A DNA stretch of 64,000 bases from Candidatus Dormiibacterota bacterium. Lineage in GTDB: Bacteria; Chloroflexota; Dormibacteria; CF-121. Below the pieces are notes generated by a model that made no database searches, was not told where the DNA came from, and worked only from the letters and a program-made list of their open reading frames with translations. Numbering within the stretch: the first letter of the stretch is position 1; the number at the start of each line of letters is the position of its first letter. Positions 737-56,964 of this stretch are shown here, one piece after another. A program made the translations under genes and the position numbers. Location: positions 6,708 to 70,707 of the forward strand of contig DATCOB010000025.1 in the NCBI GenBank assembly GCA_036564925.1, in the 5' to 3' direction.

Positions 737-762
737 GGGGCGGCCGAGAGGCCGCCTTTTTT
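737..762. terminator. bidirectional rho-independent terminator
   Basis: GGGGCGGCC-GAGA-GGCCGCC stem-loop flanked by AAAAA and TTTTTT, between convergent genes ending at 721 (+) and 761 (-). Confidence 0.55.
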
Positions 763-1882: not shown

Positions 1883-1955
1883 TGTGGCGCGTCGGTTCCG
1901 GTGTGTGTAGGCTAGACGGTGGAGTATCGATTCCGGGAGGAGGGGAGGTCTCAAC

Positions 1956-3869: not shown

Positions 3870-3915
3870 TGACGCGCGACCTGACGGCGGGCAAGGACCG
3901 CGTAGGCTAGGGTCC

Positions 3916-10775: not shown

Positions 10776-11378
10776 TCACTCGGTCGGGGCGATGAGAAAG
10801 ATCCAGATGTCCCAGGCCACGTGGCTGATGATCAGCGGGGCCATCCGTTGCTCGGCGGCGTAGACGAGGCCCCAAAAGACCCCCGCGGTCGCGGCCGCCC
10901 CGGTCAGGGTGAGGTTTTCTGAGACGAGGTGGATGCCACCGTAGATGGAGGACGCCACCAGCGCGGCGCCCACCCGCCCGAAACGGGGCTGCAGGCCGCG
11001 TTGCACCAACCCGCGCCAGAAGAGTTCCTCGCCCGGGCCAATGGCCAGGGCCAGCGCGGTCGCGATGGCCGCCTTCGGCGCCTGGGCGCGCAGCTCATAA
11101 ATCTGGCCGATCTCACGCTCGCCCGCCGGCATGATTCGCCGGGCCAGCCGATCGCCGACCTGAAACACGACATACAGGGCTCCGGCCGAGCCAAGCCCGG
11201 AGGCCAGATCACGCCAGCGTGGTCGCTCCCGCCGCAACGCCCGGTCGGTCAACAGCGCGAAGAGGCCGAGGCTGCCTACCCCGACCGTCATCCGCGGCCA
11301 GAACTGCGTCTTTGGGCCCCGAAAGGCGGCCGTCCACACGATGCCGGCCAGCCCGAGCCCCACCAGTAGCCGCCTCAT
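10776..11378 (-). CDS. CPBP-family intramembrane metalloprotease (CAAX protease-like)
   Basis: EELFWRG (EExxxR), FGGIHL (FxxxH), HVAWD motifs; ATGA overlap with upstream LLM-UbiA gene. Confidence 0.8.
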   Translation of the reverse strand: MRRLLVGLGLAGIVWTAAFRGPKTQFWPRMTVGVGSLGLFALLTDRALRRERPRWRDLASGLGSAGALYVVFQVGDRLARRIMPAGEREIGQIYELRAQAPKAAIATALALAIGPGEELFWRGLVQRGLQPRFGRVGAALVASSIYGGIHLVSENLTLTGAAATAGVFWGLVYAAEQRMAPLIISHVAWDIWIFLIAPTE

Positions 11379-13348
11379 TGCAGCATGGGCCCTGCGACCA
11401 GGCCGACCAGCAGCAGGGCGCCGAAGGCGGTGTGCAGCCGGGCCGTCATCAGGTCGATCATGGCGATCGCACGGAGACTGCCGCCGGCACCAAGCTCGGC
11501 GGCACGGAGGATCCAGGCCATCAACGGCAGGCTGAAGAGCGTGAGCAACGCAAGCCGCGGCAGCGTGCCGACCATCACCCCCACGCCGACGGCAACGTAG
11601 GCCCCGAGGACGAGCATCACGTAGATCCAGTGGGCCGCGTCCCGACCCACCTGCGCGGACAGGGTAGTGAATCCATGGCGGGTGTCCTCAGCGACGTCGC
11701 GCCACTCGTTGCCGTGGAGAATCGCCGTAACGAGCAGTCCCACCGGAAGCGACACGACCAGCAGACGTGCATCGAAGAGCCCGGTCACCGCGAAGTAGGC
11801 ACCCAGCACGATCAGCGGACCCATCAGTACGAAGACCAGGGGCAAGCCGAGGGCGCGGTACTTGTACTGGAATGGTGGGGCCGTGTAGAAATAGCCACCG
11901 ACGAACCCGATGATCCCCAGGACGAGGATCGGCCAGCCTCGGTTGACCAGCAGGTAAAGCCCGAGCATCGCCGCGATGAGAAAACCGGCCCACGCCGTGA
12001 TGAAGGCGCCGCGCTCGGTGATCCGGCCCTTCAAGATAGCCATGGACATGCGGGGTGACGTGATCGAGTCGATCCCATGCCGGACGTCGTAGATCTCGTT
12101 GATCACGTTGGTACCGATGTGGAGCCCCAGCGCACCGAACAACGCAGCCAGGAAGAGCAGCCAGTGCATCCGCCCCTGCCGTAGCGCGATCGCGCCGCCC
12201 ACCGCGACGGGGAGGAGGGAGGCGGTGAAGCTGAACGGCCGAACGAGTTCCCAGGCGCCCGCGGCGCGGCGGCCGAATCGAGCGACCGGCCCCAGCCGAT
12301 CGAGGGCGCCCGCCGCGGCAGCTGCCGGGACGACGCCGCCGGAGGCGCCCCGGGCGCCGTACTCGACGGCGGCCGCCAGCACCGCGGTCACCTGCGCCTC
12401 CTCCTGCAGGATCGGCTGCAACAACGGCACGGTCATCCCCGCCTCGTGGTAGGCGGCGGCACGCGCGGCCACGTCGGAGACAGTGCCACAGAGGATAAAA
12501 GCGTCCAGCAGCTCGTCCGGGATCAATGCCCCGGCCTTGTGGTAATCCTCGGCCCGCCACGCTGCCGCGATCTCGTTGCGCAGGGCGGGATCGAAGCCGA
12601 CGCGCTTCAGCGATACGTCGCTCAGCACGGAGATCATGTAGATGACGAACGGCTCGCGCTTGGCCCGGTTCAGCGCGTCGCGCCGGCTGCTGTCGATCAG
12701 GGCGAGCAGGTAGCCCCGGAAATCGATGTCGTCGGGCGAGCGACCGTGGCTCGCGGCGGTCTCCAGGATCCGCGCCCGCATCTTCTGGAAGGCGGGCAGC
12801 GACTCGGCGGGTCGGGCCAGGTAGCCGTCGGCCTTTTGGCCGCATAGATCGAGGAACGGCGTGCGGTAGGCGGCGATGTAGATCGGGATTCGATGGGGCG
12901 GCTGAAACATTGGTTGCAGGGGGGGGACCCTGTCGTTGAGCACCAGGCGCTCGCCGCGCCAGAGGGCGCGGACCTGGTCGATCGCGTCCGAGACGCGGGC
13001 GACCGTGTCGTCGTATGGGATCGCCATCTGGGAGAGGCGAAGCGGGAGGCCGCTGCCGACGGCGAGGGTGCAGCGCCGCGGCGCGAGGTCGTCCAGCGCG
13101 GACATGGTCATGGCCAGCACGACCGGATGCCGCGTGTAGGGATTCAGCGCCCCGGCTGCGAGGCCGACCCGGTTGGTCTCGAGCCCCATGGCCGAGAGGT
13201 AGGTGATGGGATCCCGCTCGAAATAGCTGTCATGGACCCAGACCGAATCGAGTCCGAGCTCCTCGGCGCGGCGGGCCCATCGCGCGGCCTCGCGGACGTC
13301 CCCCCGAGCCGCGAGCCCCAACCCGACTCGGAACGCGAGCTCTGCCAC
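11375..13348 (-). CDS. fusion protein: N-terminal LLM-class (luciferase-like) flavin/F420-dependent oxidoreductase + C-terminal UbiA/MenA-family prenyltransferase
   Basis: Single 657-aa ORF. aa 1-~340 LLM fold (FRVGLGLAARG...LDSVWVHDSYFERDPITYLSAM...); aa ~370-657 polytopic UbiA-family with Asp-rich NVINEIYDVRHGID motif and MenA-like TM pattern. Confidence 0.75.
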   Translation of the reverse strand: MAELAFRVGLGLAARGDVREAARWARRAEELGLDSVWVHDSYFERDPITYLSAMGLETNRVGLAAGALNPYTRHPVVLAMTMSALDDLAPRRCTLAVGSGLPLRLSQMAIPYDDTVARVSDAIDQVRALWRGERLVLNDRVPPLQPMFQPPHRIPIYIAAYRTPFLDLCGQKADGYLARPAESLPAFQKMRARILETAASHGRSPDDIDFRGYLLALIDSSRRDALNRAKREPFVIYMISVLSDVSLKRVGFDPALRNEIAAAWRAEDYHKAGALIPDELLDAFILCGTVSDVAARAAAYHEAGMTVPLLQPILQEEAQVTAVLAAAVEYGARGASGGVVPAAAAAGALDRLGPVARFGRRAAGAWELVRPFSFTASLLPVAVGGAIALRQGRMHWLLFLAALFGALGLHIGTNVINEIYDVRHGIDSITSPRMSMAILKGRITERGAFITAWAGFLIAAMLGLYLLVNRGWPILVLGIIGFVGGYFYTAPPFQYKYRALGLPLVFVLMGPLIVLGAYFAVTGLFDARLLVVSLPVGLLVTAILHGNEWRDVAEDTRHGFTTLSAQVGRDAAHWIYVMLVLGAYVAVGVGVMVGTLPRLALLTLFSLPLMAWILRAAELGAGGSLRAIAMIDLMTARLHTAFGALLLVGLVAGPMLQ

Positions 13349-13415
13349 CGCTTCACCGTACCCCAGCGCGCCTCAACCCTGCAATCGGGATTGCGCTTGA
13401 TCTCATAATCGACTC

Positions 13416-19827: not shown

Positions 19828-21915
19828 ATGCCCTTCGAAGCCACGCTTCCATTCAGTGCCCTGGTCGGGCAGGATCCGATGAAGCGAGCCCTACTCCTCA
19901 ACGCCGTCGACCCCGCCATTGGTGGGGTCCTGATCCGGGGCGACCGCGGCACGGCCAAATCGTCGGCGGTCCGTGGGCTGGCTCGTCTCCTTCCCGAGTA
20001 CGACGCGGTCGAGGGCTGCCCCTACCGCTGCGATCCGGCCTTGCCATCCCGGTACTGTGATAGTTGTCGGGAGCGCGCCAAGGCCGGTGCGCTGCCGGTG
20101 ACCCGACATTCCATGCGCATCGTCGAACTCCCGATCAACGCCTCGGAAGACCGGCTGGTGGGCTCCATCGACATCGAGGCGGCGGTGCGCTCCGGTACCC
20201 GTCGTTTCCAGCCGGGCGTGCTGGCCGAAGCGAATCGCAACATCCTGTACGTCGACGAGGTGAACCTGCTGGATGATCACCTGGTCGACGTTTTGCTCGA
20301 CGCGGCGGCCATGGGGGTCAATGTGGTCGAACGGGAGGGGATGTCGGTCATCCATCCAGCTCATTTCATCCTGGTCGGCACCATGAATCCGGAAGAAGGC
20401 GAGCTGCGTCCCCAACTCCTGGATCGCTTCGGGCTCTGCGTCGACGTGGAGACCCTGACCGACATCGACCAGCGTCTCCAGGTGATGGAACTGGAGCGCG
20501 ACTTCCTGATCGACGCCGGCCAGGTCGTGCGAACGGCGTCGTCGAATGAGGCCCGGCTTCGCGAGGCGATCCAGACGGCGCGAGCCCGGCTGCCGCAGGT
20601 CGGCCTTGCGGAAGCGATCCGCGCCCTGATTGCCCGGTTGTGCCTCGAAGACGCGGTGGCCGGACACCGGGCGGACCTGGTGGTGGCCAGGACAGCGCGC
20701 GCCATCTGCGCCCTGCGTGGGGGCGAGACGGTAGAGCTGCCGGACGTCCTTGAAGCCCTCGAATTGGGCCTTGCCCACCGCCGGCGTGAGCGGGCGGTCA
20801 ACGCCCCCGCCCAGGCGCAGAACCTGGCGGTGCGCGCCGCCGAGCAACTGGCGCAGATCCAGTCGACCACACCCAGCGAGAAGGGTCAGGACGTGCTTGG
20901 AGAAGCCACGCAAAGCGAAGGCGCCTCGGGCGGCGAGGCGACGGAAGGCTGGACCACCTCGCAAACGCGCGAGTCGCAGGCGACCGACGTGGCGGATGCG
21001 GAACCGGAAACCGTGATCCAGCTTCCTACCTTCAACGTCAGGAAGCTGGACCTTCCTCGAGAGCGCCAGGCACGGCGGGCTGCCGGGAAGAGAACGGCGA
21101 CCAAAAGTGAGACCAAGCGCGGCCGCTACGTCCGCAGCGCCCAGGCGGAGAAGGTGACGGATCTCGCCTTCGATGCGACGGTCCGTGCTGCGGCGCCGTA
21201 CCAACTGGGACGACGCAAGGCCGCGGTTACCGGCGGTCCGCACCTCCAGCTCGAGCGGCATGATCTCCGGCAGAAAGTCCGCGAGCGGAAGACCGGCAAC
21301 CTGATCGTCTTCGTGGTCGATGCCAGTGCCTCGATGGACGCCGAGCAGCGCATGCTGGCGACCAAGGGCGCCATCCTGTCGCTCCTGCGCCATGCGTATG
21401 TACGTCGCGACAAGGTCGCGCTGGTCGCTTTCAGTGGCCGCAGCGCCCGCGTGGTCCTGCGGCCAACGTCGAGCGTCGACCTGGCGGAACGCCGCCTCGA
21501 GCGGCTCAGCATCGGGGGGACGACGCCGCTGACGCACGGGCTGGTGACCGCCCTCAAGCTGGTCAAGACCGAACGGCTCCGCGATCCGCGCGTGTATCCG
21601 CTGGTCGTCTTGATCAGCGACGGCCGGGGGAACATCAGCCTGTTTGGCGAGGAGCCGTTGTTGGAAGCGCAGCGTGCCGCCGCCCAGGTCAAGCAGGAGG
21701 GCATCCGCGCGATCGTGATCGACTCGACCCGCGATTTCGGCAGCCAGCCCGGTCACCCGCGCAGCCGGGTGATGAGCCTGTACGGCGCCTATGCCTTCAA
21801 TGTGTGTGCCGATCTCGCGGAACGCCTCGGCGGCCGCTACTACGGCCTCTTCGACCTGTCGCAGACGGCCATCGTCGATACCGTCCAGCGTGAGATGCTT
21901 AGAACGGGTGCTTAG
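19828..21915 (+). CDS. magnesium-chelatase subunit D-like protein (degenerate AAA+ domain + acidic/Pro linker + C-terminal vWA)
   Basis: ChlI-like N-terminus (PFSALVGQD...[15 protein letters not shown], Walker A Gly to Ala), Cys-rich insert CPYRCDP...CDSCRER, C-terminal vWA with [14 protein letters not shown]; start at MPFEATL. Confidence 0.8.
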
Positions 21916-22105
21916 CAGAACAGCGAGGCCGCAGGCCGGACGCCTCAAACGCTCGCATCGCACTAAAGCGCGGCTCGCGTGGGCCGGCGGGCCCGGCTTT
22001 CGCGCGGATAGCGCCGGCGCCCCATGCGGCCTGTACGCGCAGGGCGAGGGCATTGGAATTTTGCCCGAGCCGCGCATGGGCCGCTGGACGGCGCACCGGC
22101 GCGAG

Positions 22106-22140
22106 AAAGTCTCTGTGCTCGAAGGGCAATAGAGGTAGCC
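22106..22140 (+). repeat. copy A of a ~35-nt intergenic motif AAGTCTCTGTG-N3-GAAG-N5-TAGAGGTAGCC
   Basis: AAAGTCTCTGTGCTCGAAGGGCAATAGAGGTAGCC immediately 5' of chlI-like TTG start; related to 37129..37167 and 58043..58078. Confidence 0.55.
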
Positions 22141-23172
22141 TTGGAGCGATTTACGTATCCGTTCAGCGCGATAGTCGGGCAGGACAAGATGAAGCTCGCG
22201 CTCGTCTTGAACGCGATCCACCCGGCGATCGGTGGCGTGCTGATCCGCGGTGAGAAGGGGACCGGGAAGTCCACCGCGGTCCGGGCGCTGGCCCGGCTCC
22301 TTCCCGAGCAGAACGTCGTGGCCGATTGCGTCTATCGGTGCGACCCGAATGCGCCCGAGGCGCTCTGCTCCGACTGCCGGGACCGGATCGCACGAGGCGA
22401 GACCCTGCCGAGGGCGCGCCGCCGAATGCGGGTCGTCGAACTGCCCATCAACGCGTCCGAGGATCGGGTTGTCGGGGCGATCGACATCGAGGCCGCCATC
22501 AAGAGTGGCGAGCGTCGCTTCGAGCCGGGGGTGCTGGCCGAGGCGAACCGCAATATCCTCTACGTCGACGAGGTGAACCTCCTCGACGATCACCTCGTGG
22601 ACGTGCTGCTGGACGCCGCGGCGATGGGCGTGAACGTGGTCGAACGCGAGGGGATCTCCATCTGGCACCCGGCGCGATTCATTCTGGTCGGCACCATGAA
22701 CCCCGAGGAGGGCGACCTGCGCCCACAGTTGCTGGACCGGTTTGGTCTCGCGGTCGACGTCGAAGGGATCAAGGACATCGGCCAGCGCGTGCAGATCGTG
22801 GAACGCCGCGAAGAATGGGAGTCTGACCCGGCTGGGTTCAGCCAGCGCTTCGCGGACGAGGATGCGCAGATCGGCCAGCGTATCGCGGAGGGGATCGTGC
22901 GCTTCCCGAAGGTCACCGTGCCGGTGGCGATCCTTCGGGGGCTGGCGGAGCTCAACGTCAGCCTCCAGGTGGATGGGCACCGGGCCGACCTCGTGGGCCG
23001 CAAGGCGGCCCAAGGCCTCGCCGCGTACCGTGGCGTTGGCGAGGTGGGCGTGAACGAGGTTAACGAGGTCGCCGACATGGTGCTGGCCCATCGAGTGAAG
23101 GCCGGGGGACGGCGCGAGCTTGGCTCCATCGGTCAGAGCATCTCGGGGGCATCGCGAGCGTCCAGAAGCTAG
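22141..23172 (+). CDS. magnesium-chelatase subunit I-like AAA+ ATPase
   Basis: TTG start with GAGG SD; [10 protein letters not shown], intact Walker [10 protein letters not shown], Walker [13 protein letters not shown], Cys-rich insert CVYRCDP...CSDCRDR; 344 aa. Confidence 0.8.
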
Positions 23173-23199
23173 CCGGGCGCGAAGGGAGTCGCAAGCTCC

Positions 23200-24456
23200 T
23201 TGGCTCGGCTTGCGCGGGAACACCGTCTCATTTTTCAATACTTGACGCGGTCGATCGCAGGCGATGACCGGACACTGCTGACGCGACTGAACGCGATCAT
23301 CGACGAGCTGCCGGCCAGCCTCCTCCGAGTCAAGGATGCCGAGCTGGGCGAGCACCTGATCCAGATCCATGAGGCGGTCGACCGGCTGGAGGCGGTCTTT
23401 GGCGGCGGTTTGCGCCGCTTTGACCGGTCCGGGGACTGCAAGGCCGACGGGGCACTGTCGTCGGTGGCCTGGCTGCGCTGGCGATGCAAGCTCTCCGGTG
23501 GTGCGGCGGCCGAACGGGTGAACATGGCCCGCCAGCTCGAGCAACTGCCCGAAACCAGGAAGGCCTTCGCCGGCGGCGAGGTCGGGTACCAGCATGTCGC
23601 GCGGCTGGCGCGGACGGCCGAGAACGTCGGCGTGGCCGCGGTTCGCCAGCAGGAGGGGAATCTGCTGCAGGCCGCCCGCACCATGGATGCCAGCCAGTTT
23701 GCCGGGGTAGCGCGGCGCTTCGAGTACCAGCTCGATCAGGCGGCGGCGCTGACGGAGGCGAACCGCGCCCATACGCGACGCTACCTGCACCTGAGTGAGC
23801 CGACCAACGGGCTCGTCCATCTCGAGGGGCTGCTCGATGCCGAGGGAGGCGCCACGTTGAAGACCGCCCTGAATGCCCTGCTGCCGCCGCCGAAGCAGGA
23901 CGACGACCGCACCGCGGGGCAGCGACGCGCCGACGCCCTGGTCGACCTGTGCCGGCAGCGGCTGGATGGCCGCCACGCGGGCCAGGTGGGCGGGCAGCGG
24001 CCGCACCTCGTCATCACGGCGAGTGCCGAGGCCCTGGCCGGCCTCCCCGGCGCCCCGCCGGCGGAGCTCGCCGGGGTGGGCGCGATCCCCCTCGAGACGG
24101 CGCAGCGCCACGCCTGCGACGCGTCGGTAAGCCTGATTCTCGCCCAGGGCGAGCTGGACCGCGAGCGAGCGGGCCACGCCAGCCAGAAGATCCCGCCGGC
24201 GACGCGCCGGGCGCTGGTCGCCCGCGACCGTGGCTGCGTCGTCAATGGCTGTCAGCGGCCGCCGGCCTGGTGCGATGGACATCACGTGGTCTGGTGGACG
24301 CGGGGTGGCCGGACGGAGCTGTCCAACCTGGCGCTGGTCTGCGGGCGCCATCACCGCATGATCCACGAAGAAGGCTGGAGCCTGAGCCGGAACGTGGGTC
24401 AGTGGGTCACCACGCCACCGGCCAGCAGGGTCGCGGCGCATGCCCGGTCCGCCTGA
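23200..24456 (+). CDS. DUF222 + HNH endonuclease domain protein (actinobacterial '13E12-like' family)
   Basis: C-terminal HNH motif CVVNGCQRP..CDGHHVVWW..GG.T...NLALVCGRHHRMIH; long alpha-helical DUF222-like N-terminus; 418 aa. Confidence 0.8.
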   Translation: MARLAREHRLIFQYLTRSIAGDDRTLLTRLNAIIDELPASLLRVKDAELGEHLIQIHEAVDRLEAVFGGGLRRFDRSGDCKADGALSSVAWLRWRCKLSGGAAAERVNMARQLEQLPETRKAFAGGEVGYQHVARLARTAENVGVAAVRQQEGNLLQAARTMDASQFAGVARRFEYQLDQAAALTEANRAHTRRYLHLSEPTNGLVHLEGLLDAEGGATLKTALNALLPPPKQDDDRTAGQRRADALVDLCRQRLDGRHAGQVGGQRPHLVITASAEALAGLPGAPPAELAGVGAIPLETAQRHACDASVSLILAQGELDRERAGHASQKIPPATRRALVARDRGCVVNGCQRPPAWCDGHHVVWWTRGGRTELSNLALVCGRHHRMIHEEGWSLSRNVGQWVTTPPASRVAAHARSA

Positions 24457-24492
24457 CCCCGGGAAATTCTGATCTGCAGATAAACTCCGTTC

Positions 24493-26295
24493 GTGTCCAC
24501 GCCCACCCACTTGATCCGTGCCATCTCGGTTATCGCCCATGTGGACCACGGCAAGACGACATTGTCGGACCGCCTCCTCGAGTTCACCGGGACCGTTGCG
24601 CCCCGCGACATGGTGGAGCAGGTCCTCGATCAACTCGATCTCGAGCGCGAGCGCGGCATCACGATCAAGGCGCAGGCCGTCCGCATGCTGTACCAGGCGG
24701 ACGATGGCAATACCTACCAGATCAACCTCATCGACACGCCCGGCCACGTGGATTTTTCCTACGAGGTCTCGCGGGCCCTGGCGGCCTGTGACGGCGCCAT
24801 CCTGGTGGTGGACGCATCGCAGGGGATCGAGGCGCAGACGCTCGCCAACGTCCACCAGGCGCTCGACCACCACCTGACGATCGTGCCGGTCGTCAACAAG
24901 ATCGACCTGCCGCATGCCGATCCCGAGCTAGTGCGCGAGGAGATCCAGAAGGTGATCGGGCTTCCGGCCGAGTCCGTCATCTTCGCCAGTGCGCGGCAGG
25001 GCATTGGCACCAAAGAGATCCTGGAGGCGGTCGTCCGCGAGGTGCCGCCCCCGACCGGCGACCGGTCATCTCCGCTGCAGGCGCTGATCTTCGATGCCAA
25101 GTTCGACGCCTACCGCGGCGTGGTCACCTATGTGCGTGTGCTCGAAGGAACGCTCCGCCCCAAGATGCGGATCCAGATGATGCAGACCGGCAGGAGCTTC
25201 GAAGTCGACGAAGTGGGGGTCTTTCGGCCCCACCGCACCGAGGTGGAGGACCTCTCCGCCGGCGAGGTCGGATACCTGATCGCCAACATTCGCAACGTTC
25301 GCGATTCCCGGGTCGGCGATACCGTGACCGATGAGGCGAGGCCTGCCGCCGCCCCGCTGCCGGGCTATCGCCACGTGACGCCGATGGTCTTTGCCGGGCT
25401 GTTCCCGACCGACACCGACCAGTACCAGCAGTTGAAGGAGGCGCTCGAGCGGCTGCAACTCAACGATGCCTCGCTCGTGTACGAGCCGGAGTCCTCGGCA
25501 GCGCTGGGCTTCGGATATCGGTGCGGCTTCCTCGGGCTGCTTCACATGGACATCGTCCAGGAGCGGCTCGAGCGCGAGTTCAACCTCACGCTGCTCGCCA
25601 CCGCGCCCACGGTCGAGTATCGGGTCCGGCTCCGGAATGGTGAGGAGGTGCCGGTCGACAACCCTGACAAACTGCCGGATCCCGCCGAGATCGAGTCGAT
25701 CAGCGAGCCGATGGTGCTGGCTACGGTCGTGGTGCCGAGCACCTACGTGGGCAACATGATGGAGTTGAGCCAGGAGCGTCGGGGACAGTTCTTGAACATG
25801 GAGTACCAGCCGGGCGACCGGGTCGTGATCACCTATCGGATGCCGCTGGCGGAGATCATCCACGACTACAACGACCAGCTCAAGTCCCGCAGCAAGGGCT
25901 ATGCCTCGCTGGACTACGAACTCGTCGGCTTCGAGGAAGCGAACCTCGTCAAGCTCGACATCCTGGTTGCGGGGTCGCCGGTCGATGCCCTCTCGATGAT
26001 CGTGGAGCGGAGCAAGGCGCATCAGCAGGGGCGGCGGCTGAGCGAGAAACTGAAGACCCTCATTCCGCGTCAGCTCTTCGAGGTCCCCATCCAGGCGGCG
26101 ATCGGCGGCAAGATCGTCGCCCGCGAAACGGTGCCCGCCCTGCGCAAGGACGTGATCGCCAAGTGCTACGGCGGTGATGTGACCCGCAAACGCAAGCTGC
26201 TCGAAAAGCAAAAAGAGGGAAAGAAGCGCATGAAGCGGGTCGGGAACGTCGAGATCCCGCAGGAGGCTTTCATGGCCGTATTGAGCCTGGACTGA
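24493..26295 (+). CDS. lepA: elongation factor 4 (LepA)
   Basis: [23 protein letters not shown]-domain, LepA C-terminal domain; 600 aa. Confidence 0.95.
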
Positions 26296-27416
26296 TGATG
26301 GAACGGATTCGCAGCCTGTACCTGCACGTGCCGTTCTGCACCTGGCTGTGCAAGTACTGTGACTTCAATACCTACGCCGTGCTCCAGGGTTTGATCCCGA
26401 GCTATGTGGAGGCGCTCAGCCGGGAAATCGACGTGCAATCCGCGATGATGCCGATCGGACCACTCGAGACCGTCTTCATCGGCGGCGGTACACCCAGCTT
26501 GCTGAGCGGCGACCAGTTGCAACGCGTGATGGCGCCGGTCTTCCGCATCGGGCTCCAGCCGGGCGCGGAGGTCACCATGGAGGCGAATCCGAGCAACGTC
26601 ACGAGCGAGCACGTCGCGGCCTGGCTGGCCGCCGGCGTGACCCGCCTCAGTCTCGGGGTGCAGAGCCTCCAGCCGGGCGCGCTGCGCTTTCTCGAGCGGC
26701 TACATTCCGGGGACGATGCCATTGCGGCCATCCGTGTCGCGCGGGCCGGTGGATTCGACAACATCAACGGGGACCTGCTGTATGGCGTCCCGGGCGTGGA
26801 CCTCAGTTCCTGGATGGAAACGCTTGATGCGGTGGTGGCCGAGGGGATCGAACACGTTTCGGCCTACGAACTCACCGTCGAGTCGGGGACTCGCCTGGGA
26901 CAGGAGGTGCGGACGGGGTTGGTCACGATGCCCGATGCCGAGGCGCAGCTCGATCAATACTGGGCGGCGGTCGATCGTCTTAAGGTGGCCGGCTTTTGTC
27001 ATTACGAGATCTCCAACTGGGCGCGTGAAGGCTATCGCTGCCGGCACAACCTCGCCGGCTGGCATTATCAGCCCTACCTTGGGTGCGGCGCCGGCGCGCA
27101 TTCGATGCTTCGCCTGGAGGATGGCACGACGGAGCGGCGCTGGAATGTGAAGGGGCCGCACGCCTACATCAAGGCCGTTGGCGAGGCGGGTCGGGCAGTC
27201 GACGGCCGGGAAACGCTGTCGCCGGAGCGCGCGCGCGGGGAGGCCGCGATGATCGGCGTTCGCGTGCTGGAGGGCACGACGGCAACCCAGGCCTTCCCTG
27301 ACCAGCGGCGTCAGCTGGTTGGCGCCGGCCTGCTGGTGGAGGACGCCGGACGGGTGCACCTCACCCGTCGTGGGGTCGAACTCGCCAACCAGGTTGGCGC
27401 CGCCTTCCTCCGCTAG
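26295..27416 (+). CDS. hemW: radical-SAM heme chaperone HemW (HemN-like)
   Basis: LYLHVPFCTWLCKYCDF CxxxCxxC radical SAM motif; conserved lepA-hemW synteny; start overlaps lepA stop. Confidence 0.9.
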   Translation: MMERIRSLYLHVPFCTWLCKYCDFNTYAVLQGLIPSYVEALSREIDVQSAMMPIGPLETVFIGGGTPSLLSGDQLQRVMAPVFRIGLQPGAEVTMEANPSNVTSEHVAAWLAAGVTRLSLGVQSLQPGALRFLERLHSGDDAIAAIRVARAGGFDNINGDLLYGVPGVDLSSWMETLDAVVAEGIEHVSAYELTVESGTRLGQEVRTGLVTMPDAEAQLDQYWAAVDRLKVAGFCHYEISNWAREGYRCRHNLAGWHYQPYLGCGAGAHSMLRLEDGTTERRWNVKGPHAYIKAVGEAGRAVDGRETLSPERARGEAAMIGVRVLEGTTATQAFPDQRRQLVGAGLLVEDAGRVHLTRRGVELANQVGAAFLR

Positions 27417-28012
27417 CCGCGTGGTGGGATGCCGGCCGTTGCCATCACTCGTTCGAAGACCTCGTAGGGTTGCGCGCCCATCACGAGGTACCGGTCGGCG
27501 ACGACGTGCGCCGGGATCCCGCTGATCATGAGCTCCTCGGCCTCCGCTCGCCGCGTGTCGAGGTAGTCTCCGAAACGATCCGTCCTGACCGCCTCGTCCA
27601 TGGCATCGGCGTCGACGCCGGCACGGATCGCCAGCTCTTTAAGGACGGCCATGGTCGAGATATCGCGACCCTCATCCCAGTAGGCGCGAAACAGCTCGCG
27701 GTGCATCGGCTCGAAGCGACCCTGCTCCCGGGCGAACTCCGCCGCCTGCAAGGCAGGACGGGAGTTGATCAACCGCTCGTGCAGCCGCAGCTCCAGGCCC
27801 ACCTGGGCAGCCATCCGGTTCAGCCCGGTCTCGACCTGCGTTCGGTAGGCGGCGGGCAGCACCTCGTCGCGTGGCCGGCCTTCCGGCGGAATTTCGGGAT
27901 GGAGCTCGTAGGGTACCCAATCGATCGCCACGTCGTATTCCCGGACGAGCTGCTCGACCCGGACCAGGTCGATGTAGCAGAAGGGTCAGACGTAGTCCGA
28001 GTAGATCCGCAC
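27413..28012 (-). CDS. DsbA/FrnE-family thiol:disulfide oxidoreductase with in-frame TGA at the first Cys position of the CPxC motif (candidate selenoprotein; alternatively 5'-truncated pseudogene)
   Basis: Annotated ORF (GTG at 27931) lacks the thioredoxin active site; extending upstream in frame gives GTG(28012)-RIYSDYV-TGA(27986-27988)-PFCYIDLVRVEQLVREYDVAIDWVPYELHPE, matching FrnE consensus I.SD..CPWCYIG...W..FELHP with TGA exactly at the first Cys. Confidence 0.55.
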
Positions 28013-28052
28013 CGGGCTGGCCACCCCGCAAGGATAGCCCGTACAATGGGCG

Positions 28053-28079
28053 TTAGCACTCGCGGACCGCGACTGCCAA
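28053..28079 (+). promoter_or_regulatory. CIRCE operator (HrcA binding site) upstream of hrcA
   Basis: TTAGCACTC-N9-GACTGCCAA vs consensus TTAGCACTC-N9-GAGTGCTAA (left arm 9/9, right arm 7/9), ending 1 nt before hrcA ATG. Confidence 0.7.
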
Positions 28080-28080
28080 C

Positions 28081-29121
28081 ATGCTAGAACCAAGCCAGCT
28101 GGACGAACGCAAGCAACGGATCCTCAAGGCGGTGGTCTCGGACTACACGCTGACCGGGATCCCGGTCGGGTCGCAGGTGCTGGCCGCCAAGTATTTTTTG
28201 GCCCTGTCGTCCGCCACGATCCGAAACGAGCTGGCCGACCTGGTGGGGACCGGCTACCTCCAGCAGCCGCATACCTCGGCGGGTCGCATTCCGACCGACC
28301 GCGGGTACCGCTATTTTGTCGACTTCTTGATGCAGCCGGAGGCGGCCCCGAGCGCGGTGCGGCGCGCCGTCAAGCAGGAGTTCGAGATCGCGCCGCACAA
28401 CCTTGAGGGCATCCTGGAGAAGGCCGCCATGGTCCTCGCCCAAATAACTGAGAATGTCTCGCTGGTCACCGCCCCGGAGACCAGTGAGTCCCGGATCAAG
28501 CACATCGACCTCGTTTCCCTCGAAGCCCAGTCGGTGCTGATCATCCTCGTTCTCGAGGGGAACTTGATCAAGCAACAGGTGGTCGGCCTCGAACGGCCCA
28601 CAACCCAGGACGACCTCAGCCGGATGGCGGCCATGTTGAACCGGAAGGTGCGGGGCCAGTCTGCGAATGAGCTGACGACCCGGCTCAGTCAGCTCGGACC
28701 GGACCGCGGGGAGCAACGACGGATCCTGGAACGGCTGGTCGACTCCATCAAGAGCCACCAGGCGCAGCGTCAGACCGTCGTGTTGCACGATGGGTTCCGC
28801 AACCTACTGCGCCACCCCGAGTTCGTCGACGTGACCCGGCTCGAGGAATTGCTCGAACTGATCGAACAGGGCGCCCAACTGGCCGGCATCCTGCAGCAGG
28901 TCGCCTTCGAGAAGGATGTCGAGGTCATCATCGGACGGGAAAACACGAGCAGCGGCCTGCGGGAGTGCAGCCTGGTACTGACGACCTACAAAATGGCGGA
29001 CCGGATCCGGGGGACGGTGGGCGTGGTGGGACCGACGCGCATGCCATACGGGCAGATCGTGGCCCGTGTTCGGCTCGTCAGCCAGATGACCTCGGAAGCG
29101 CTCGGCAACCTGGGCAACTGA
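28081..29121 (+). CDS. hrcA: heat-inducible transcription repressor HrcA
   Basis: Winged-helix N-terminus RKQRILKAVVSDYTLTGIPVGSQVLA, HrcA C-terminal domain; 346 aa. Confidence 0.9.
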   Translation: MLEPSQLDERKQRILKAVVSDYTLTGIPVGSQVLAAKYFLALSSATIRNELADLVGTGYLQQPHTSAGRIPTDRGYRYFVDFLMQPEAAPSAVRRAVKQEFEIAPHNLEGILEKAAMVLAQITENVSLVTAPETSESRIKHIDLVSLEAQSVLIILVLEGNLIKQQVVGLERPTTQDDLSRMAAMLNRKVRGQSANELTTRLSQLGPDRGEQRRILERLVDSIKSHQAQRQTVVLHDGFRNLLRHPEFVDVTRLEELLELIEQGAQLAGILQQVAFEKDVEVIIGRENTSSGLRECSLVLTTYKMADRIRGTVGVVGPTRMPYGQIVARVRLVSQMTSEALGNLGN

Positions 29122-29155
29122 TTTAGGCGGCGCGGCGAGGGGTAAGAAGCAAGGC

Positions 29156-29740
29156 ATGTCCCGCAAGCACGAGCCGGAAGACGATCCGGCGGCCGGCCTT
29201 CATGAGGGGCCGGAACCTGGCGTGATCGACGGCCGGGCCAGCGCCAGCAGCGGCGGGGCGGCGGAAAAGCCCGCTGATCCGGATCGCCAGGCCGCCCTGG
29301 ATGAAGCCCAGGCGATGCTCGCACGCTACCAGCGATTGGCCGCCGACTTCGAGAACTACAAGCGGCGGACCATAAAGGACCTGGCCGACCGGACGCAGTA
29401 TGCGAACGAGGAACTCCTGCGCAAGCTGCTCCCAATCCTGGACAATTTCCAGCGCGCCCTTTCCCACCCGCCCGGCGACGTTGACCCGGGATGGTTGGAA
29501 GGCATCAAGCTCGTCGCGCGGCAATTCGAAGGCACGCTCGCGCAGCAGGGGTTGACCACCATCCCGGCGGTGGGCGAGAAGTTCGACCCTTCGCAGCATG
29601 AGGCGATCGCCAGCCAGGAGACCGAGGAGCACGAAGAGGGCACCATCGTCGAAGAGATGCAGCCGGGCTACCGGCTTCACGACCGTGTCCTGCGGCCCAC
29701 CCTGGTCAAGGTTGCCCAACCTCCCGCGTTGACACAGTAA
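29156..29740 (+). CDS. grpE: nucleotide exchange factor GrpE
   Basis: GrpE coiled-coil and core (YQRLAADFENYKRRTIKDL, LLPILDNFQRAL). Confidence 0.9.
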   Translation: MSRKHEPEDDPAAGLHEGPEPGVIDGRASASSGGAAEKPADPDRQAALDEAQAMLARYQRLAADFENYKRRTIKDLADRTQYANEELLRKLLPILDNFQRALSHPPGDVDPGWLEGIKLVARQFEGTLAQQGLTTIPAVGEKFDPSQHEAIASQETEEHEEGTIVEEMQPGYRLHDRVLRPTLVKVAQPPALTQ

Positions 29741-29743
29741 ACG

Positions 29744-30868
29744 ATGGCGATCAAGCGGGACTACTACGAGGTGCTGGGCGTCGGACGCAACGCCAGCGCC
29801 GAGGAACTGAAGCGGGCGTATCGCAAGCTGGCTCTCCAGTACCATCCGGACCGTAACCCCGATGATCCGCAGGCCGAGTCCCGCTTCAAGGAGATCAACG
29901 AAGCCTACGAGGTGCTGAGCGACCAGTCGAAGCGACAACGGTATGACACCTTCGGCCACGCGGGTACCCAGGGACAACCCGGCTTCGACTTCGGCGGGGC
30001 CGGATTCGGGGGCAGCGTCAATGACATCTTCGACATGTTCTTTGGGGCCGCGGCCGGCCAACGAAGCCGAACGGGGCCCCGTCGCGGGACCGATCTTCGG
30101 CTGGACCTGAAGATCAGCTTCGAAGACGCGGTCTTCGGCGTCGCCCGCGAGCTGACCATCCCCCGGGCCGAGGCGTGTGACGCGTGTCGGGGCAGCGGCG
30201 CCGAGGCCGGGACCACGGCACAGACCTGCTCCCAGTGCCGCGGGAGCGGCCAGGTTCGTCGGGCGAGCCAATCCATCTTCGGCCAGATCGTCAACGTCGC
30301 GGCCTGTCCGCGATGCAATGGCGAGGGCAAGGTCATCGAGAAGCCCTGCCGGAAGTGCGCCGGGAGCGGGCACCTCCCGGGTGAGAAGAAGATCCGCGTG
30401 AACATTCCCGCCGGCGTCGATTCGGGGTCGCAAATCCGGCTCTCCGGGGAAGGTGAAGCCGGCCCGCGCAACGGCGAGCCCGGCGATCTCTACATCGTCA
30501 TCCAGGTCAAGCCGCACGCGGTGCTTCGCCGCAACGGGACCGACGTCGTCTACGAACTGCCGCTCAGCGTCGCTCAGGCGGCGCTCGGCGACACCATCGA
30601 AATTCCGACCGTGGACGGGCCTGAGACGCTCGAGATCCCGGCGGGGACGCAGTATGGAAAGACGTTTAAGATTCACGGCCGAGGCGTGCCACACGTGCGT
30701 TCGGGACGGCGGGGCGATCAGATCATCTTCGTTCGCGTGGTGATCCCGACCAATCTGACCGAGGACCAAAAAGACGCGCTCCGGCAACTCGGCGGGGTCA
30801 GCGGCAAGCCGCAGCACATCGAGAAGGGCTTCTTCGACAAGTTCAAGCACGCGATCGGTCTCGAGTAA
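29744..30868 (+). CDS. dnaJ: molecular chaperone DnaJ
   Basis: J domain DYYEVLGV...HPDRNP, G/F region, four CxxCxGxG zinc-finger repeats, C-terminal domains. Confidence 0.95.
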
Positions 30869-39121: not shown

Positions 39122-40074
39122 TCGTGGGCCGCGGGAAGCGCGATGCCGGTCAGCTTCAAGAACAGGTCACCCAGGTTCGGCCGTCGGACACGCATGGTGT
39201 TGACGAGATCGGCGGTTCCGTTGAGCACGGCGAGGACGTCGGCGGGGTTCGCCCCCTTGGCCAGGACGATGTGCACCGTATCCCCTTCCACGTTGGCGGC
39301 TTCCACCGACGCGAGCCCGCGCAGCTTATCGAGGGGGACCGGCGAGCTCACCTGGAGCTGCACCTCCTTGGACCCCGCCAGCTCGCTCAGCAATTCTGGG
39401 ACCCTGCCCTCGCGGATCACGCGGCCGTGGTGCAGGAAGAGGACCCGGTCGCAGAGCCGCTCGGCCAGGTGCACGTCGTTGGTGGCGAGCAGGATCGCCA
39501 CGCCGGTAAGGCTCAGGAGCTGCAGCCGCTCGATGAGTTCGAGCTCGGCCCGGTAATCGAGCGCCAGGGTCGGCTCGTCGAGCAGCAGGATCTCCGGGCG
39601 GTGAACGAGTGCCTCGATCAAGTTCAGCCTCCGCTTCATCCCCAGCGAGTACTCGGCGACGAGCTGATCGCGGGCATCCCAGAGGCCGGACCAGTGGAGC
39701 AGCTCGTCCAGGCGTGCCCGGGCGAGCTCCTGCGACAGGCCGAATTGGCGGGCGAAGAACCAGGCGTTCTGATAGCCGGACATCTGATCGAAGTGGGCCG
39801 CCTGATCGAGGACGATCCCCAGGCGGCGGCGGACTGATGGGTCGCGCGGGTTTTTATTGCCGAACCAGGTGATGGTGCCGGCGGTCGGCGTTGAGGCGGT
39901 CGCCAGCATGCGCAGCAGGGTCGTTTTCCCCGAGCCGTTGGGACCCATCAAGCCGACCACCTCGCCGGCGTCAAGGGTGATCGCCACGTCGAAGACACCC
40001 TTGCCGCCGCGGTAGCGGCGGCTCAGGTCGCTCGCGCGCAGGAGGCTATCCCTTGAAGCCGTATCGTCCTTCAT
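39118..40074 (-). CDS. ABC transporter ATP-binding protein
   Basis: Walker A GLMGPNGSGKTT, signature SLGMKRRL, Walker B LLLDEPT. Confidence 0.9.
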   Translation of the reverse strand: MKDDTASRDSLLRASDLSRRYRGGKGVFDVAITLDAGEVVGLMGPNGSGKTTLLRMLATASTPTAGTITWFGNKNPRDPSVRRRLGIVLDQAAHFDQMSGYQNAWFFARQFGLSQELARARLDELLHWSGLWDARDQLVAEYSLGMKRRLNLIEALVHRPEILLLDEPTLALDYRAELELIERLQLLSLTGVAILLATNDVHLAERLCDRVLFLHHGRVIREGRVPELLSELAGSKEVQLQVSSPVPLDKLRGLASVEAANVEGDTVHIVLAKGANPADVLAVLNGTADLVNTMRVRRPNLGDLFLKLTGIALPAAHE

Positions 40075-42568
40075 GGAAATCGCCGGTCTCGATCCATTTC
40101 TGGATCACGGCGTCCATTACGTGGCTGGTCACCCGGGCCTCACCCAGTTGGCGGGCATTCCCCTCGATCGCCTCCATCACCTGGCCTTTCACGAACGGCG
40201 GCATATTCTCGAGCCGTTTCTCCGCGTCTGGTTCCCACGGCATCTGCTGGCCCTTTTGCTGGAGGGCATCCGACACCTCACCCCACATCTCGAATTTGAC
40301 ATCCATGGCTTCCGGGGTGATGACCGGGCCGAGGCCCTTCTTCGCCGCCGTCCACTCGACGCGCCAGCGGCTCAGCTCGCGGCAGTACGAGGGAAGGTTG
40401 GCCAGCCTGGCCTCCGCCTCGGACGACCAGGTGAAACGATGCTCGAAGGTTTTCTGGCTGAGGGGATGCCCATAACCGATCTTGATGCCGAGCCGCTCCA
40501 GGAATGCGGCGTTGATCGCCTCCGAGGTCCGGGCAGCTCGCGACTCGGCGGCATGTTCGGCCAGTTCGCGGGCGCGGGCGGGATCGAATTTCTCCATCGC
40601 GCGGATCTCCACCTCGTTGAGCCGGCGGACGCCGTCCTCCGTCCAGCCGGGAGCGGTCTCCGGCGGCGCCTCGGCGGCCGACCCTCCGTGACCATGGGCG
40701 TGCATGGCCGCCTCGACGATGTCAGGCGAGTGAGCCTTGAGCGCCTGGTCCATCATCAGGCGGGCATCCACCAGGCCGCCTTCCACGACGTCCCGGGTGA
40801 TGGTCTCGGCATGGATCTTGCGGGCGAACTCCTCGACCTTGCTGCGGGCGAGCATCCGCATGAACCCCCCGGGGACGCGCTCCATGCGGCTGACCGCGTC
40901 GTCGGTCCAGGTGATCGGCGCCTCGCCATTCTTCGGCGCGCCCGGGGTCGGGATGTGATCCCCGACGGCCTCCGCGACCGGACCGTAGGCCTCGTCCAGG
41001 TTCGCGTCGGCGAAATCCCTCGTAATGCTGGGCAGGCGCTGCACCCGCGCGATCTTTTCGACGCGGGCCTTGACCCGACGCCGCTCGTAGCCCTTGGGCA
41101 CGCGGTTCAGGACCTCTTTCGCCTCGGCGGTCCATTTCACCTTGAACCCGTCGAACGCCTCCTCTTCCTCGATGCCGCCCTCCCGGGTGGCCATCGCGGC
41201 GATGGCCGCCTTGTCAACGGCCTGGAAGCTCATCCCCTCGCATACCGGGCAGGTGTCGGGTCGCTGTCCCTGGGAGGGCCTCCCGCAGCGGCGACAGATC
41301 CAGGTCTCGACGGCTTCCAGGCCGTCCATGGAGGCCCTCACCGTGATCGGCTCGACCCCCATCGCGCGGGCCGCGTGCTCGGGCATGACCTCGGAGACGG
41401 CCTGGTCGATGATCGAGGAACTGATGATCGAGTGGCCCCGCTCCATGGCGTATCGGCAGATGGCAGTGCGGGTGATCGCGCGGAAGGCGGCGGGCACCTT
41501 CTCCATTCGCACCTCGGCCTCCTCGGTCCACGCGACACTCGCCTCCGCCTGGACATCGATGGGTGGCACAAACGTTCGGCTGGAGAGCAGCACGCTGACC
41601 GGGGCCAGGCGGAGGAGGTTGTCGCTGTTGCTGCCGATGTCCATCGTGCCGGCGGAGTGGACGCCGATCCGGCCGATGACCAGCAGCCAGGGTGGATCCT
41701 GGCGGACGTACTGCAGGACCTTCTTGAACGCCTTGCCGTCGAAGAGCGTGGTCTTCAGCTCGACGCCCTGGTCGCGCGCCACGGACTGCGCGACCCGGAG
41801 ATGGGACTCGTAGATCTTGGCCAGTCCGGTGTCGATGATCTCCTCGTGAAGTTGCTCCTGCTCTTTGAAGCGGAAGATCTTGGAGGCCTCGGCGGAAAGG
41901 ACGTCCACGATCCCGTTGAACATCGCATAGTGGAGATAAGGGTCGTACACGGACACGGCTTCGACGCGCTTGTCGAGCGCAACCGCCAAATCCAGCGCGG
42001 TCTTGAGGCCGGCAAATGACTGGGGGCTGCCGTCGATCGCCACGACGATCCGATCCGAGGCGTCCTCGCGAAACGGGTGGGTGTCCCGAACGACGAGCGA
42101 ATCCACCCGGATCCGGCGCACCACCCGGTCAGTGACGCTGCCGATCATGCTGTCCTTGACCGCGCCCATGCCGAGGGCGCCCATCACCACCAGGTCGTAG
42201 TCGGACTCGCCGATGTCCTGGACCAAGCACTCCCAGTTCTTGCCGTCAAAGCTCTTGTACTCGACCGGAAGCCCAGCCCGGTCGCAGGCCACCTTCATCA
42301 CATCGAGGTAGGAATCCGAGATCAACTGCAACCCGCGAGTGATCAGGGAATCGTGGATTTTGCGCTGACGCTCCAGCTCCTGTTCCTGCTGATACTCCTC
42401 AGGCAGCGTGTACTCCATCTGCTTGAAGCGGACATCGTGCATGCGCGCGGCATAGATGTGGCTGCCGACCAGTGAGGCGCCGGTCGACTTGGCCAGCGCA
42501 ATGGCGACCTCGATTGCCGCATTGGAGTGGTCCGAGTTATCGAGGGGGACATAGATTTTCTCGTACAC
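40046..42568 (-). CDS. multidomain protein: 2x universal stress protein (UspA) domains + Cys4 zinc ribbon + six PCP_red-like (protochlorophyllide reductase 57 kDa C-terminal) repeats
   Basis: Usp starts MYEKIYVPLDNSDHS... and RIVVAIDGSPQS...; CRRCGRP...CPVCEG; repeated W[TS]xEAExRLxxVPxFVRxxxRxxxExxAR units (AWTEEAEVRMEKVPAAF, KWTAEAKEVLNRVPKGY, TWTDDAVSRMERVPGGF, GWTEDGVRRLNEV, TWSSEAEARLANLPSY, PWEPDAEKRLENMPPFVKG). Confidence 0.8.
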   Translation of the reverse strand: MYEKIYVPLDNSDHSNAAIEVAIALAKSTGASLVGSHIYAARMHDVRFKQMEYTLPEEYQQEQELERQRKIHDSLITRGLQLISDSYLDVMKVACDRAGLPVEYKSFDGKNWECLVQDIGESDYDLVVMGALGMGAVKDSMIGSVTDRVVRRIRVDSLVVRDTHPFREDASDRIVVAIDGSPQSFAGLKTALDLAVALDKRVEAVSVYDPYLHYAMFNGIVDVLSAEASKIFRFKEQEQLHEEIIDTGLAKIYESHLRVAQSVARDQGVELKTTLFDGKAFKKVLQYVRQDPPWLLVIGRIGVHSAGTMDIGSNSDNLLRLAPVSVLLSSRTFVPPIDVQAEASVAWTEEAEVRMEKVPAAFRAITRTAICRYAMERGHSIISSSIIDQAVSEVMPEHAARAMGVEPITVRASMDGLEAVETWICRRCGRPSQGQRPDTCPVCEGMSFQAVDKAAIAAMATREGGIEEEEAFDGFKVKWTAEAKEVLNRVPKGYERRRVKARVEKIARVQRLPSITRDFADANLDEAYGPVAEAVGDHIPTPGAPKNGEAPITWTDDAVSRMERVPGGFMRMLARSKVEEFARKIHAETITRDVVEGGLVDARLMMDQALKAHSPDIVEAAMHAHGHGGSAAEAPPETAPGWTEDGVRRLNEVEIRAMEKFDPARARELAEHAAESRAARTSEAINAAFLERLGIKIGYGHPLSQKTFEHRFTWSSEAEARLANLPSYCRELSRWRVEWTAAKKGLGPVITPEAMDVKFEMWGEVSDALQQKGQQMPWEPDAEKRLENMPPFVKGQVMEAIEGNARQLGEARVTSHVMDAVIQKWIETGDFHEGRYGFKG

Positions 42569-42673
42569 GGGCAGCTCCCTTCACACTGCGGCGCGGCCGC
42601 GAGCCCGACGGCAATCACGAGACGACGGCCCTTCCAGCCGCCGTTCCATCATATCTACCGTGCTCGAGCAACG

Positions 42674-45270: not shown

Positions 45271-45527
45271 TTTTCTAACCTCCTGTATTTCGACGATCGC
45301 TATGGTCCCCAGTCTCGGGCCGGCCGCTGAGACGGACCGTTCGAAACCCTTAGAGGTGGCTGAGAGCGCCGGATTAAGGCCGAAGGAGGGTGGCTTAACG
45401 ATTCTTTCCTGCAAGCGAGCCGGTTTTTCGCATCCGTTACCGTTGCCCCCTGACAGTCCCATCAAGGGATGCGAAAGGGCTTACAGCGTTATGCCCGCCG
45501 TAGCCTTACGGCCGTATCGTCGCCAGC

Positions 45528-56929: not shown

Positions 56930-56964
56930 CGAAGGAAGGTGGCGATTCCTACGTCGTACCTCGC

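Follow-up and report, generated by a model that had tools for sequence, protein, structure and literature searches.

A probable selenocysteine-containing FrnE-type oxidoreductase encoded back-to-back with hrcA in a Candidatus Dormibacterota bacterium

DsbA-like proteins with selenocysteine (Sec, U) in a UxxC redox motif (COG2761/PF01323) were predicted in 2005 from the Sargasso Sea metagenome. They were later described in Anaeromyxobacter dehalogenans, Desulfovibrio desulfuricans, and Desulfotomaculum reducens, and a 2026 catalogue of prokaryotic selenoproteins holds the entry 'DsbA-like protein form 1'. FrnE of Deinococcus radiodurans is a cytoplasmic, Cys-containing protein induced by stress (radiation, desiccation, cadmium). 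It confers protection against cadmium and diamide, and in vitro it works as a disulfide isomerase and reductase (PMC8945050). The present work concerns a related gene in a 64,000-nucleotide stretch of DNA from a Candidatus Dormibacterota bacterium, hereafter called the window. The gene, at 28024..27413 on the minus strand, is very probably a genuine selenoprotein gene for a presumably cytoplasmic FrnE-type DsbA-family protein, with UGA read as Sec. The N-terminal nucleophilic active-site Cys appears to be replaced by Sec, which would give the motif U13-P-F-C16.

Reading frame and conservation of the TGA codon

The program-made list of open reading frames (ORFs) holds only a 172-aa ORF with a GTG start at 27413..27931. 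The minus-strand frame ending with the TAG at 27413 reads ...GVASPVRIYSDYV*PFCYIDLVRVEQLVREYDVAIDWVPYELHPE..., and the TGA at 27988-27986 is its sole interruption. Once this codon is read through and U is replaced by C, residues 5-193 of the 203-aa product match the Pfam DSBA profile (PF01323) over positions 2-189 of 191 (E 4.6e-37), with a score above the gathering score. The DSBA domain is therefore complete only if the TGA is read through. The best matches in the PDB are the FrnE structures 5cnw and 5cp1 (E 3.9e-21), followed by SCO1869 (3gl5). In the alignment to 5cnw, 'sdyvCPFCyi' lies on 'SDIACPWCYI', and the TGA takes the place of the first, nucleophilic Cys. An earlier note on this DNA had described the same ORF and its same-frame extension, and its coordinates and translation hold. 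It had also set the TGA at the first Cys of CPxC, where the FrnE alignment places it, and had proposed comparing the extended translation with PF01323, which gave the match above.

C16 is the sole Cys of the 203-aa product. In the alignment, the N-terminus (MASPVRIYSDYV) begins 4 residues ahead of beta-strand 1 and would thus leave no room for a signal peptide. Toward the C-terminus, G138, I139, and P140 of the 172-aa ORF are invariant among 33 homologues. This G-I-P motif is presumably the cis-proline loop of DsbA-type folds, the cis conformation being assumed by analogy with the family.

The TGA codon is strictly conserved, well outside what chance would produce. A metagenome scan yielded 80 soil loci with 70-78% amino acid identity, of which 79 contain the site. 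All 79 carry TGA (68 distinct 165-nt sequences) in the context (M/V)PTPVRIYSDYV-TGA-PFCYIDSVGVERLEREYDV, and the following base is always C. This answers the question, raised in the earlier note, whether orthologues have Cys or TGA at this codon. These sequences are well diverged, with a pairwise third-codon-position identity of 0.61 in the median and 0.455 at minimum. TGA is also found in two Chloroflexota homologues with 36-37% identity, one from a sponge-type Chloroflexi metagenome-assembled genome (MAG; L001) and one from a complete Dehalococcoidia chromosome (L003). Both read IIVSDFI-TGA-PWCYVG.

Furthermore, the part after the UGA was searched against 1.84 billion cluster representatives, which gave 4427 relatives. 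Among the best 150, which were classed, 65 have an N-terminal CPFC, CPWC, or CPYC, about 70 are annotated from after the motif, and three have W at the U position. DNA was fetched for seven distant N-truncated representatives (38-49% identity). In all seven, the aligned codon is TGA, and 9-13 codons ahead of it stands a start codon. Full-length Cys forms come no closer than about 43% identity. A genome-contig scan returned distant homologues only (29-42% identity). Its matches were dominated by the pattern DYVCPFCY, with CPFC at the site in 77 of 80 loci, and provided the Cys controls as well as the two Chloroflexota Sec forms. Close Cys-form orthologues were sought with a 60-aa N-terminal query, which returned only two truncated fragments. 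The gene hence shows both classical comparative hallmarks of a selenoprotein gene, i.e., a conserved UGA and Cys homologues. As separate observations, Sec-for-Cys FrnE forms with a hairpin in the same register lie at 6019-6078 of L001 and at 6019-6078 of L003 (chromosome OZ242017.1), and such forms also occur in at least seven other clusters below 50% identity (L170-L177).

The sequence ahead of the TGA is coding as well. Among 60 distinct orthologous upstream sequences, a start codon stands 12 codons before the TGA in every case (ATG in 47, GTG in 13), and in several orthologues stop codons lie directly upstream. The start in the window is therefore the GTG at 28024-28022, and not the GTG at 28012 that the earlier note had chosen. 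Compared with the consensus, codons -7 to -1 show 114 synonymous and 2 non-synonymous differences, and codons -11 to -1 show 201 and 27. Strong purifying selection acts on the 12 codons that precede the TGA. In contrast, the orthologue alignment contains no conserved start codon after the TGA. Gene callers place the start at a Val codon that reads GTG in no more than 40 of 70 sequences, and the codon matching GTG 27931 of the window is GTG in 3 of 63. As judged from this codon pattern, with nearly all upstream change synonymous, translation is shown to start at GTG 28024 and to continue through the UGA at 27988-27986.

Public annotation gives a different picture. The best 120 database homologues (72-90% identity) are all annotated as proteins of 170-193 aa starting after the motif, and this uniformity suggested that they share a stop codon. 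For the gene of the window itself, the start assigned by the Prokaryotic Genome Annotation Pipeline (PGAP) is ATC. Since neither an NCBIfam model of the protein nor an Rfam model of the hairpin described below exists, the uniform mis-annotation is explained. A Sec-containing FrnE subfamily would thus be invisible in protein databases, where its members are counted as CxxC-less DsbA fragments.

The hairpin after the UGA and the decoding of the codon

A hairpin which is a candidate selenocysteine insertion sequence (SECIS) follows the UGA, where the earlier note had seen no convincing one. It begins 13 nt after the UGA, its loop begins 20 nt after the UGA, and its stem has 7 bp. The clade consensus is UCGACUC-GGUCG-GAGUCGA, and the window has UCGACCU-GGUCC-GGGUCGA. 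Folded locally (27 nt), the sequences reach -10 to -11.1 kcal/mol with z of -2.0 to -2.7 (window -11.1, z -2.4), and the Chloroflexota versions reach -12.2 kcal/mol. With RNAalifold, this stem was recovered both from 56 sequences of the clade and from 12 diverse ones, with weak support for a lower stem. Bacterial SECIS (bSECIS) elements were described by a consensus with a loop of 3-9 nt, a stem of 4-16 bp, a G in the first two loop positions, a UGA-loop distance of 16-37 nt, and a minimum free energy (MFE) of at most -7.5 kcal/mol (PMC13188914). The hairpin agrees with all four bSECIS criteria, having a loop of 5 nt (3 in some), a stem of 7 bp, GG or GU at the start of the loop, a spacing of 20 nt, and an MFE of -10 kcal/mol or lower.

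Three lines of evidence speak for selection on the RNA itself, namely frozen synonymous sites, covariation, and a control with Cys forms. In the six hairpin codons, the synonymous-codon entropy amounts to 0.19 bit, compared with 1.03 bit in the 95 others, the hairpin value being the lowest of 76 sliding windows (Mann-Whitney p = 3e-4). The sole synonymous freedom left is GGA/GGG, both of which pair with the U across the stem. GGC and GGU, Gly codons that would disrupt this pair, are not seen among these sequences. Over ten lineages, pair 22/30 appears as UA, CG, UG, and AU, and pair 23/29 as CG, AU, UA, and UG. In total, 97.4% of the hairpin cells are paired, compared to 27-55% when the partners are slid. 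The covariation score is 0.369, versus 0.189 +/- 0.024 after shuffling, and none of 500 shuffles reaches it, a comparison to be read with the caution that applies to related sequences. Finally, the hairpin is specific to the TGA forms and absent from the Cys forms. In the same register, the Cys-form homologues (n=76) pair 3.8 of 7 positions with a mean MFE of -4.3 kcal/mol, and 6.6% reach -7.5 kcal/mol. The Sec forms pair 6.8 of 7 positions with a mean of -10.1 kcal/mol, and 96% reach -7.5 kcal/mol.

In the proposed mechanism, the UGA would be decoded by Sec-tRNA(Sec) delivered by SelB, which would be recruited by this hairpin with its 7-bp stem and GGUC-type apical loop. The product would act as a thiol-disulfide (selenenylsulfide) oxidoreductase/isomerase on cytoplasmic proteins, similar to the Cys-containing FrnE of D. 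radiodurans, with the selenolate as the more reactive attacking group.

Several results weigh against this proposal. Within the Dormibacterota clade alone, the hairpin is conserved but not covarying: a single double change was seen and the shuffles were not exceeded, so that covariation becomes significant only once the more distant Sec forms are added. Folded as one piece, the 71 nt after the UGA are no more stable than shuffled sequences (z -0.35). Rfam gave no match at the gathering threshold over the whole window, nor at E up to 10 over 27880-28100. No NCBIfam model recognizes the protein, the best, NF041057, staying below its cut-off. Moreover, selA, selB, and selD were not found with E. 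coli proteins (tblastn) in the 64-kb window and about 760 kb of related loci, ARAGORN found no tRNA-Sec in the window or the fetched related loci, and the presence of the Sec machinery elsewhere in the genome is assumed. The literature searched held no link between Dormibacterota and selenocysteine. Sec at residue 13 is itself read from the nucleotide sequence, and HrcA control and a leaderless transcript (see the section on the promoter region) are inferred from sequence geometry.

The matches obtained with SelA, SelB, and SelD were the LepA GTPase domain and one weak AIRS-family match, and the Pfam annotation of the window contains no selenium-related genes. In one related locus (L173), an AIRS-domain gene adjoining the Sec form looks like selD, but it is HypE (465 bits versus 49 for selD). 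The homologous TGA and hairpin also occur in Dehalococcoidia, which in BSepDB rank among the bacteria richest in selenoproteins. A scan of the window for other in-frame TGAs, based on G+C at third codon positions, gave seven candidates, and beside the TGA at 27988 none was judged convincing by its position. Five of the remaining six are antisense to identified genes, and the sixth (24401) lies in the gap between a DUF222 gene and lepA.

The UGA could also be read through without Sec, by near-cognate or suppressor insertion of Trp, Cys, or Gly, or by local or global reassignment of the codon. Besides the Sec machinery missing from the available sequence, the three related cluster representatives with W, which are probably gene calls made with TGA as Trp, would fit such a reading, and so would the invariant C after the TGA. 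UGA-C is a leaky context in E. coli. In the window, however, TGA is not reassigned but is an ordinary stop codon, terminating 18 of 44 coding-like ORFs, including lepA, hrcA, and at least 11 other Pfam-supported genes. A Trp or Gly at the nucleophile of CPxC would abolish catalysis, and for a Cys the codon would just be TGC or TGT, which the 77 Cys forms use. A hairpin which is confined to the TGA forms and fits the SelB-type bSECIS consensus also speaks against such read-through, which we regard as quite unlikely.

Alternatively, the 12 codons ending at the TGA could form a conserved upstream ORF regulating a separately initiated DsbA-like protein, with the hairpin as a regulatory element or attenuator. 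A short peptide and a stable hairpin close behind its stop would suit this scheme. Nevertheless, the 12 residues align to beta-strand 1 and to the xSDxx preceding CPxC in FrnE and in Pfam DSBA, and they share their frame with the domain. In Cys-form homologues, one uninterrupted ORF includes these residues, and neither a conserved re-initiation codon nor a Shine-Dalgarno (SD) sequence is seen. Regulation by an upstream ORF is therefore very unlikely.

Least credible of all, and close to dismissed, is a DsbA/FrnE pseudogene with a nonsense mutation, or a gene that yields just a fragment lacking CxxC, re-initiated at a GTG farther down, as in public annotation. In its favour, the proteins annotated by gene callers and PGAP begin behind the TGA in each of the 120 best homologues, HEY8677417.1 starts at an ATC codon in its record, and one locus has lost the 3' arm of the hairpin. 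Against it, the TGA is kept in all 79 orthologues and nine more distant lineages, the upstream codons are under purifying selection, no conserved downstream start codon or SD exists, and the truncated product would be without beta-strand 1 and the whole active site. The locus with the lost arm, L162 (Ga0209577_10008261, about 8440-8560), keeps the TGA but is missing 48 nt in frame (16 codons, GVERLEREYDVEIEW). This may reflect decay of the copy or an error of assembly.

A selenoprotein gene remains the preferred reading. The earlier note had likewise argued for Sec-for-Cys replacement and not decay, and its argument has gained from the TGA kept in 79 of 79 loci, the selection upstream, the Cys homologues, the covarying TGA-specific hairpin, and the normal use of TGA as a stop.

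The promoter region shared with hrcA and other features of the window

The coordinates of the features are compiled in Table 1. The selenoprotein gene candidate is divergent from hrcA, and this arrangement is found in 60 of 60 loci with enough flank. The start-to-start distance is 53-61 nt in all loci but one. In the window, HrcA is identical to HEY8677418.1 of a Candidatus Dormibacteraeota bacterium MAG, and the DsbA-like ORF is also present on GCA_036744675.1. A search with the consensus of the CIRCE operator (controlling inverted repeat of chaperone expression), TTAGCACTC-N9-GAGTGCTAA, gave one match in the window, with 0.01 expected by chance. It lies between the two genes, at -29 to -55 relative to the selenoprotein start codon. 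Of 60 distinct upstream sequences from orthologues, 59 have CIRCE, and its distance to the start codon is 28 nt throughout. The CIRCE element in the region shared with hrcA, pointed out in the earlier note, is thus real and conserved. The same note had given the promoter region as 68 bp, but with the start at 28024 the intergenic distance to hrcA is 56 bp.

Table 1 Features of the candidate selenoprotein locus (positions in the window)
Feature	Position	Strand	Remarks
FrnE-type DsbA-family coding sequence, probable selenoprotein	27413..28024	-	203 aa, MASPVRIYSDYV-U-PFCY..., GTG start, TAG stop
Start codon GTG	28022..28024	-	12 codons ahead of the predicted Sec codon; aligns with ATG/GTG of orthologues
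In-frame TGA, predicted to be read as Sec	27986..27988	-	residue 13; conserved in orthologues; aligns to first Cys of FrnE CPWC
Putative redox motif U-P-F-C	27977..27988	-	CPxC of thioredoxin fold; Cys forms here have CPFC, CPWC, or CPYC
Candidate bacterial SECIS-type hairpin	27954..27972	-	5' arm UCGACCU 27972-27966, loop GGUCC 27965-27961, 3' arm GGGUCGA 27960-27954
G-I-P motif	27512..27520	-	residues 169-171, loop opposite active site; aligns to ITGVP of FrnE
TATCCT, TAnnnT (-10-like) hexamer	28031..28036	-	6 nt before GTG start; putative function
CIRCE operator	28053..28079	.	TTAGCACTC-N9-GACTGCCAA, 2 mismatches, between the divergent genes
Promoter-like site for hrcA	28018..28047	+	TGGCCA-18-TACAAT, consensus match; 1 found, 0.1 expected
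hrcA	28081..29121	+	divergent, first gene of hrcA-grpE-dnaJ; Pfam HrcA

The promoter-like site of hrcA precedes CIRCE, and its -35 element overlies the start of the selenoprotein gene candidate. On the opposite strand, a TAnnnT hexamer stands at -12 to -7 in all 60 distinct orthologous upstream sequences, and none of these 60 has an SD-like 4-mer upstream of the selenoprotein start. The hexamer fixed near the start together with the lack of an SD suggests that the selenoprotein mRNA may be leaderless. The two genes have their -10-like boxes back-to-back, 5 nt apart, with TACAAT at 28042-28047 (+, hrcA) and TATCCT at 28036-28031 (-). In the arrangement proposed, the leaderless mRNA would start from a promoter back-to-back with that of hrcA. 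A single CIRCE would cover the -35 region of the selenoprotein gene and also block hrcA, which would place the gene in the HrcA heat-shock regulon with hrcA-grpE-dnaJ. No hrcA is found near the Chloroflexota Sec forms, and the linkage to hrcA is hence specific to Dormibacterota. Through the strictly conserved arrangement of hrcA and CIRCE, a possible connection of protein-folding stress with a seleno-disulfide oxidoreductase becomes open to test.

A broader proposal is put forward tentatively, and we would sooner doubt than assert it: all sampled Dormibacterota may keep one selenoprotein, a tail-less FrnE-type oxidoreductase made from a leaderless mRNA, with Sec at codon 13 and a CIRCE/HrcA operator shared with hrcA-grpE-dnaJ. 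If true, this would be the first selenoprotein assigned to a classical heat-shock regulon and the first evidence of the Sec-decoding trait in the largely uncultured, oxygen-respiring Dormibacterota. According to the review literature, aerobes rarely keep selenoproteins. The gene points to selenocysteine use in a lineage on which the selenoproteome literature searched is silent. It leaves the known principles of Sec decoding as they are.

The heat-shock operon itself extends over 28081-30868 (+). In this operon, grpE (29156-29740) is directly followed by dnaJ (29744-30868), and no dnaK lies between them, in contrast to the usual order hrcA-grpE-dnaK-dnaJ. A radical-SAM (hemW-like) gene is convergent on the 3' end of the DsbA-like gene, and lepA is also a neighbour. 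Farther out in the window are genes for Fer2, Rieske/cytochrome b, and cytochrome bd oxidase proteins.

Some other features of the window deserve mention. A lactate/glycolate utilisation cluster at 761-8005 comprises an FMN-dependent dehydrogenase, an L-lactate permease, two FAD-linked oxidase subunits (GlcD/GlcE-like), and an Fe-S/CCG-domain subunit (GlcF-like). At 11375-13372 (-), a 665-codon stop-to-stop frame encodes a luciferase-like monooxygenase (residues 14-314) and then a UbiA prenyltransferase (386-621), representing either one fused gene or two neighbours that share the frame. An 844-aa ORF at 40046-42580 (-) has an unusual architecture of two universal stress protein (Usp) domains and four PCP_red domains. 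PCP_red is the C-terminal domain of the protochlorophyllide reductase 57 kD subunit. Parts of a type IV pilus or type II secretion system (T2SSE ATPase, PilM-like, T2SSF) are scattered in the right-hand third, at 45504-46700, 58806-59810, and 60995-62236, and adjoin two HD-GYP/GGDEF-type signalling proteins (54512-57975). The G+C content of the window is 64-69%. At 19891-24927 (-), a 1678-codon open frame runs antisense to three called genes (VWA, AAA/Mg-chelatase-like, DUF222). It is a high-G+C artefact, and ORF length alone is unreliable in this window.

Comparison with known systems

The best solved relative is FrnE of D. radiodurans (DR_0659; 5cnw, 5cp1), to which residues 5-189 align, including xSDxxCPWCYI and the G-[IV]-P loop. 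FrnE has Cys and not Sec, and its C-terminal CxxxxC tail, which regenerates the active site, is missing from the window protein. The tail is also absent from FrnE of S. roseofulvus and of D. maricopensis (PMC8945050), and the CxxxxC is therefore not obligatory for the subfamily. By analogy, the chemistry of the window protein would be the same as that of FrnE, via a selenenylsulfide intermediate. Orthologues are named 'predicted DsbA family dithiol-disulfide isomerase' by the Joint Genome Institute, which is the COG2761 name.

The Rcas_1661 family thioredoxin-like (seleno)lipoprotein (NCBIfam NF041057) also belongs to a DsbA/thioredoxin-like family with Sec members. Membership of the window protein was considered and rejected, as only its C-terminal half matches, with 40 bits (E 3e-10) against a cut-off of 190 bits, and it has no lipoprotein signal.

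As for the RNA element, the SECIS of E. coli fdhF is likewise a hairpin within the coding sequence directly 3' of the UGA, with GGUC in the apical loop. The distance from the UGA to the loop is 18 nt in fdhF, as re-derived from the genome, and 20 nt in the window. The stem in the window is shorter and lacks the bulged U of the fdhF element. Recognition of the window hairpin by SelB is predicted.

The closest described system is DsbA-like protein form 1, which shares with the window gene PF01323, a UxxC at the CPxC position, and a hairpin directly downstream with a G in the apical loop. The likeness to its members NIP15863.1 and AACY01178397 is by description. It differs in that the host here is Candidatus Dormibacterota, a soil lineage with respiratory oxidase genes in the window, and in the fixed divergent pairing with hrcA and CIRCE, which is undescribed for the family. 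The earlier note had called DsbA-like UxxC proteins an established family found in some anaerobes, and the literature bears this out. The window gene is a member of this already known family and represents no new kind of system. What it adds is the Dormibacterota host, the universal mis-annotation, and the conserved back-to-back arrangement with hrcA around one CIRCE.

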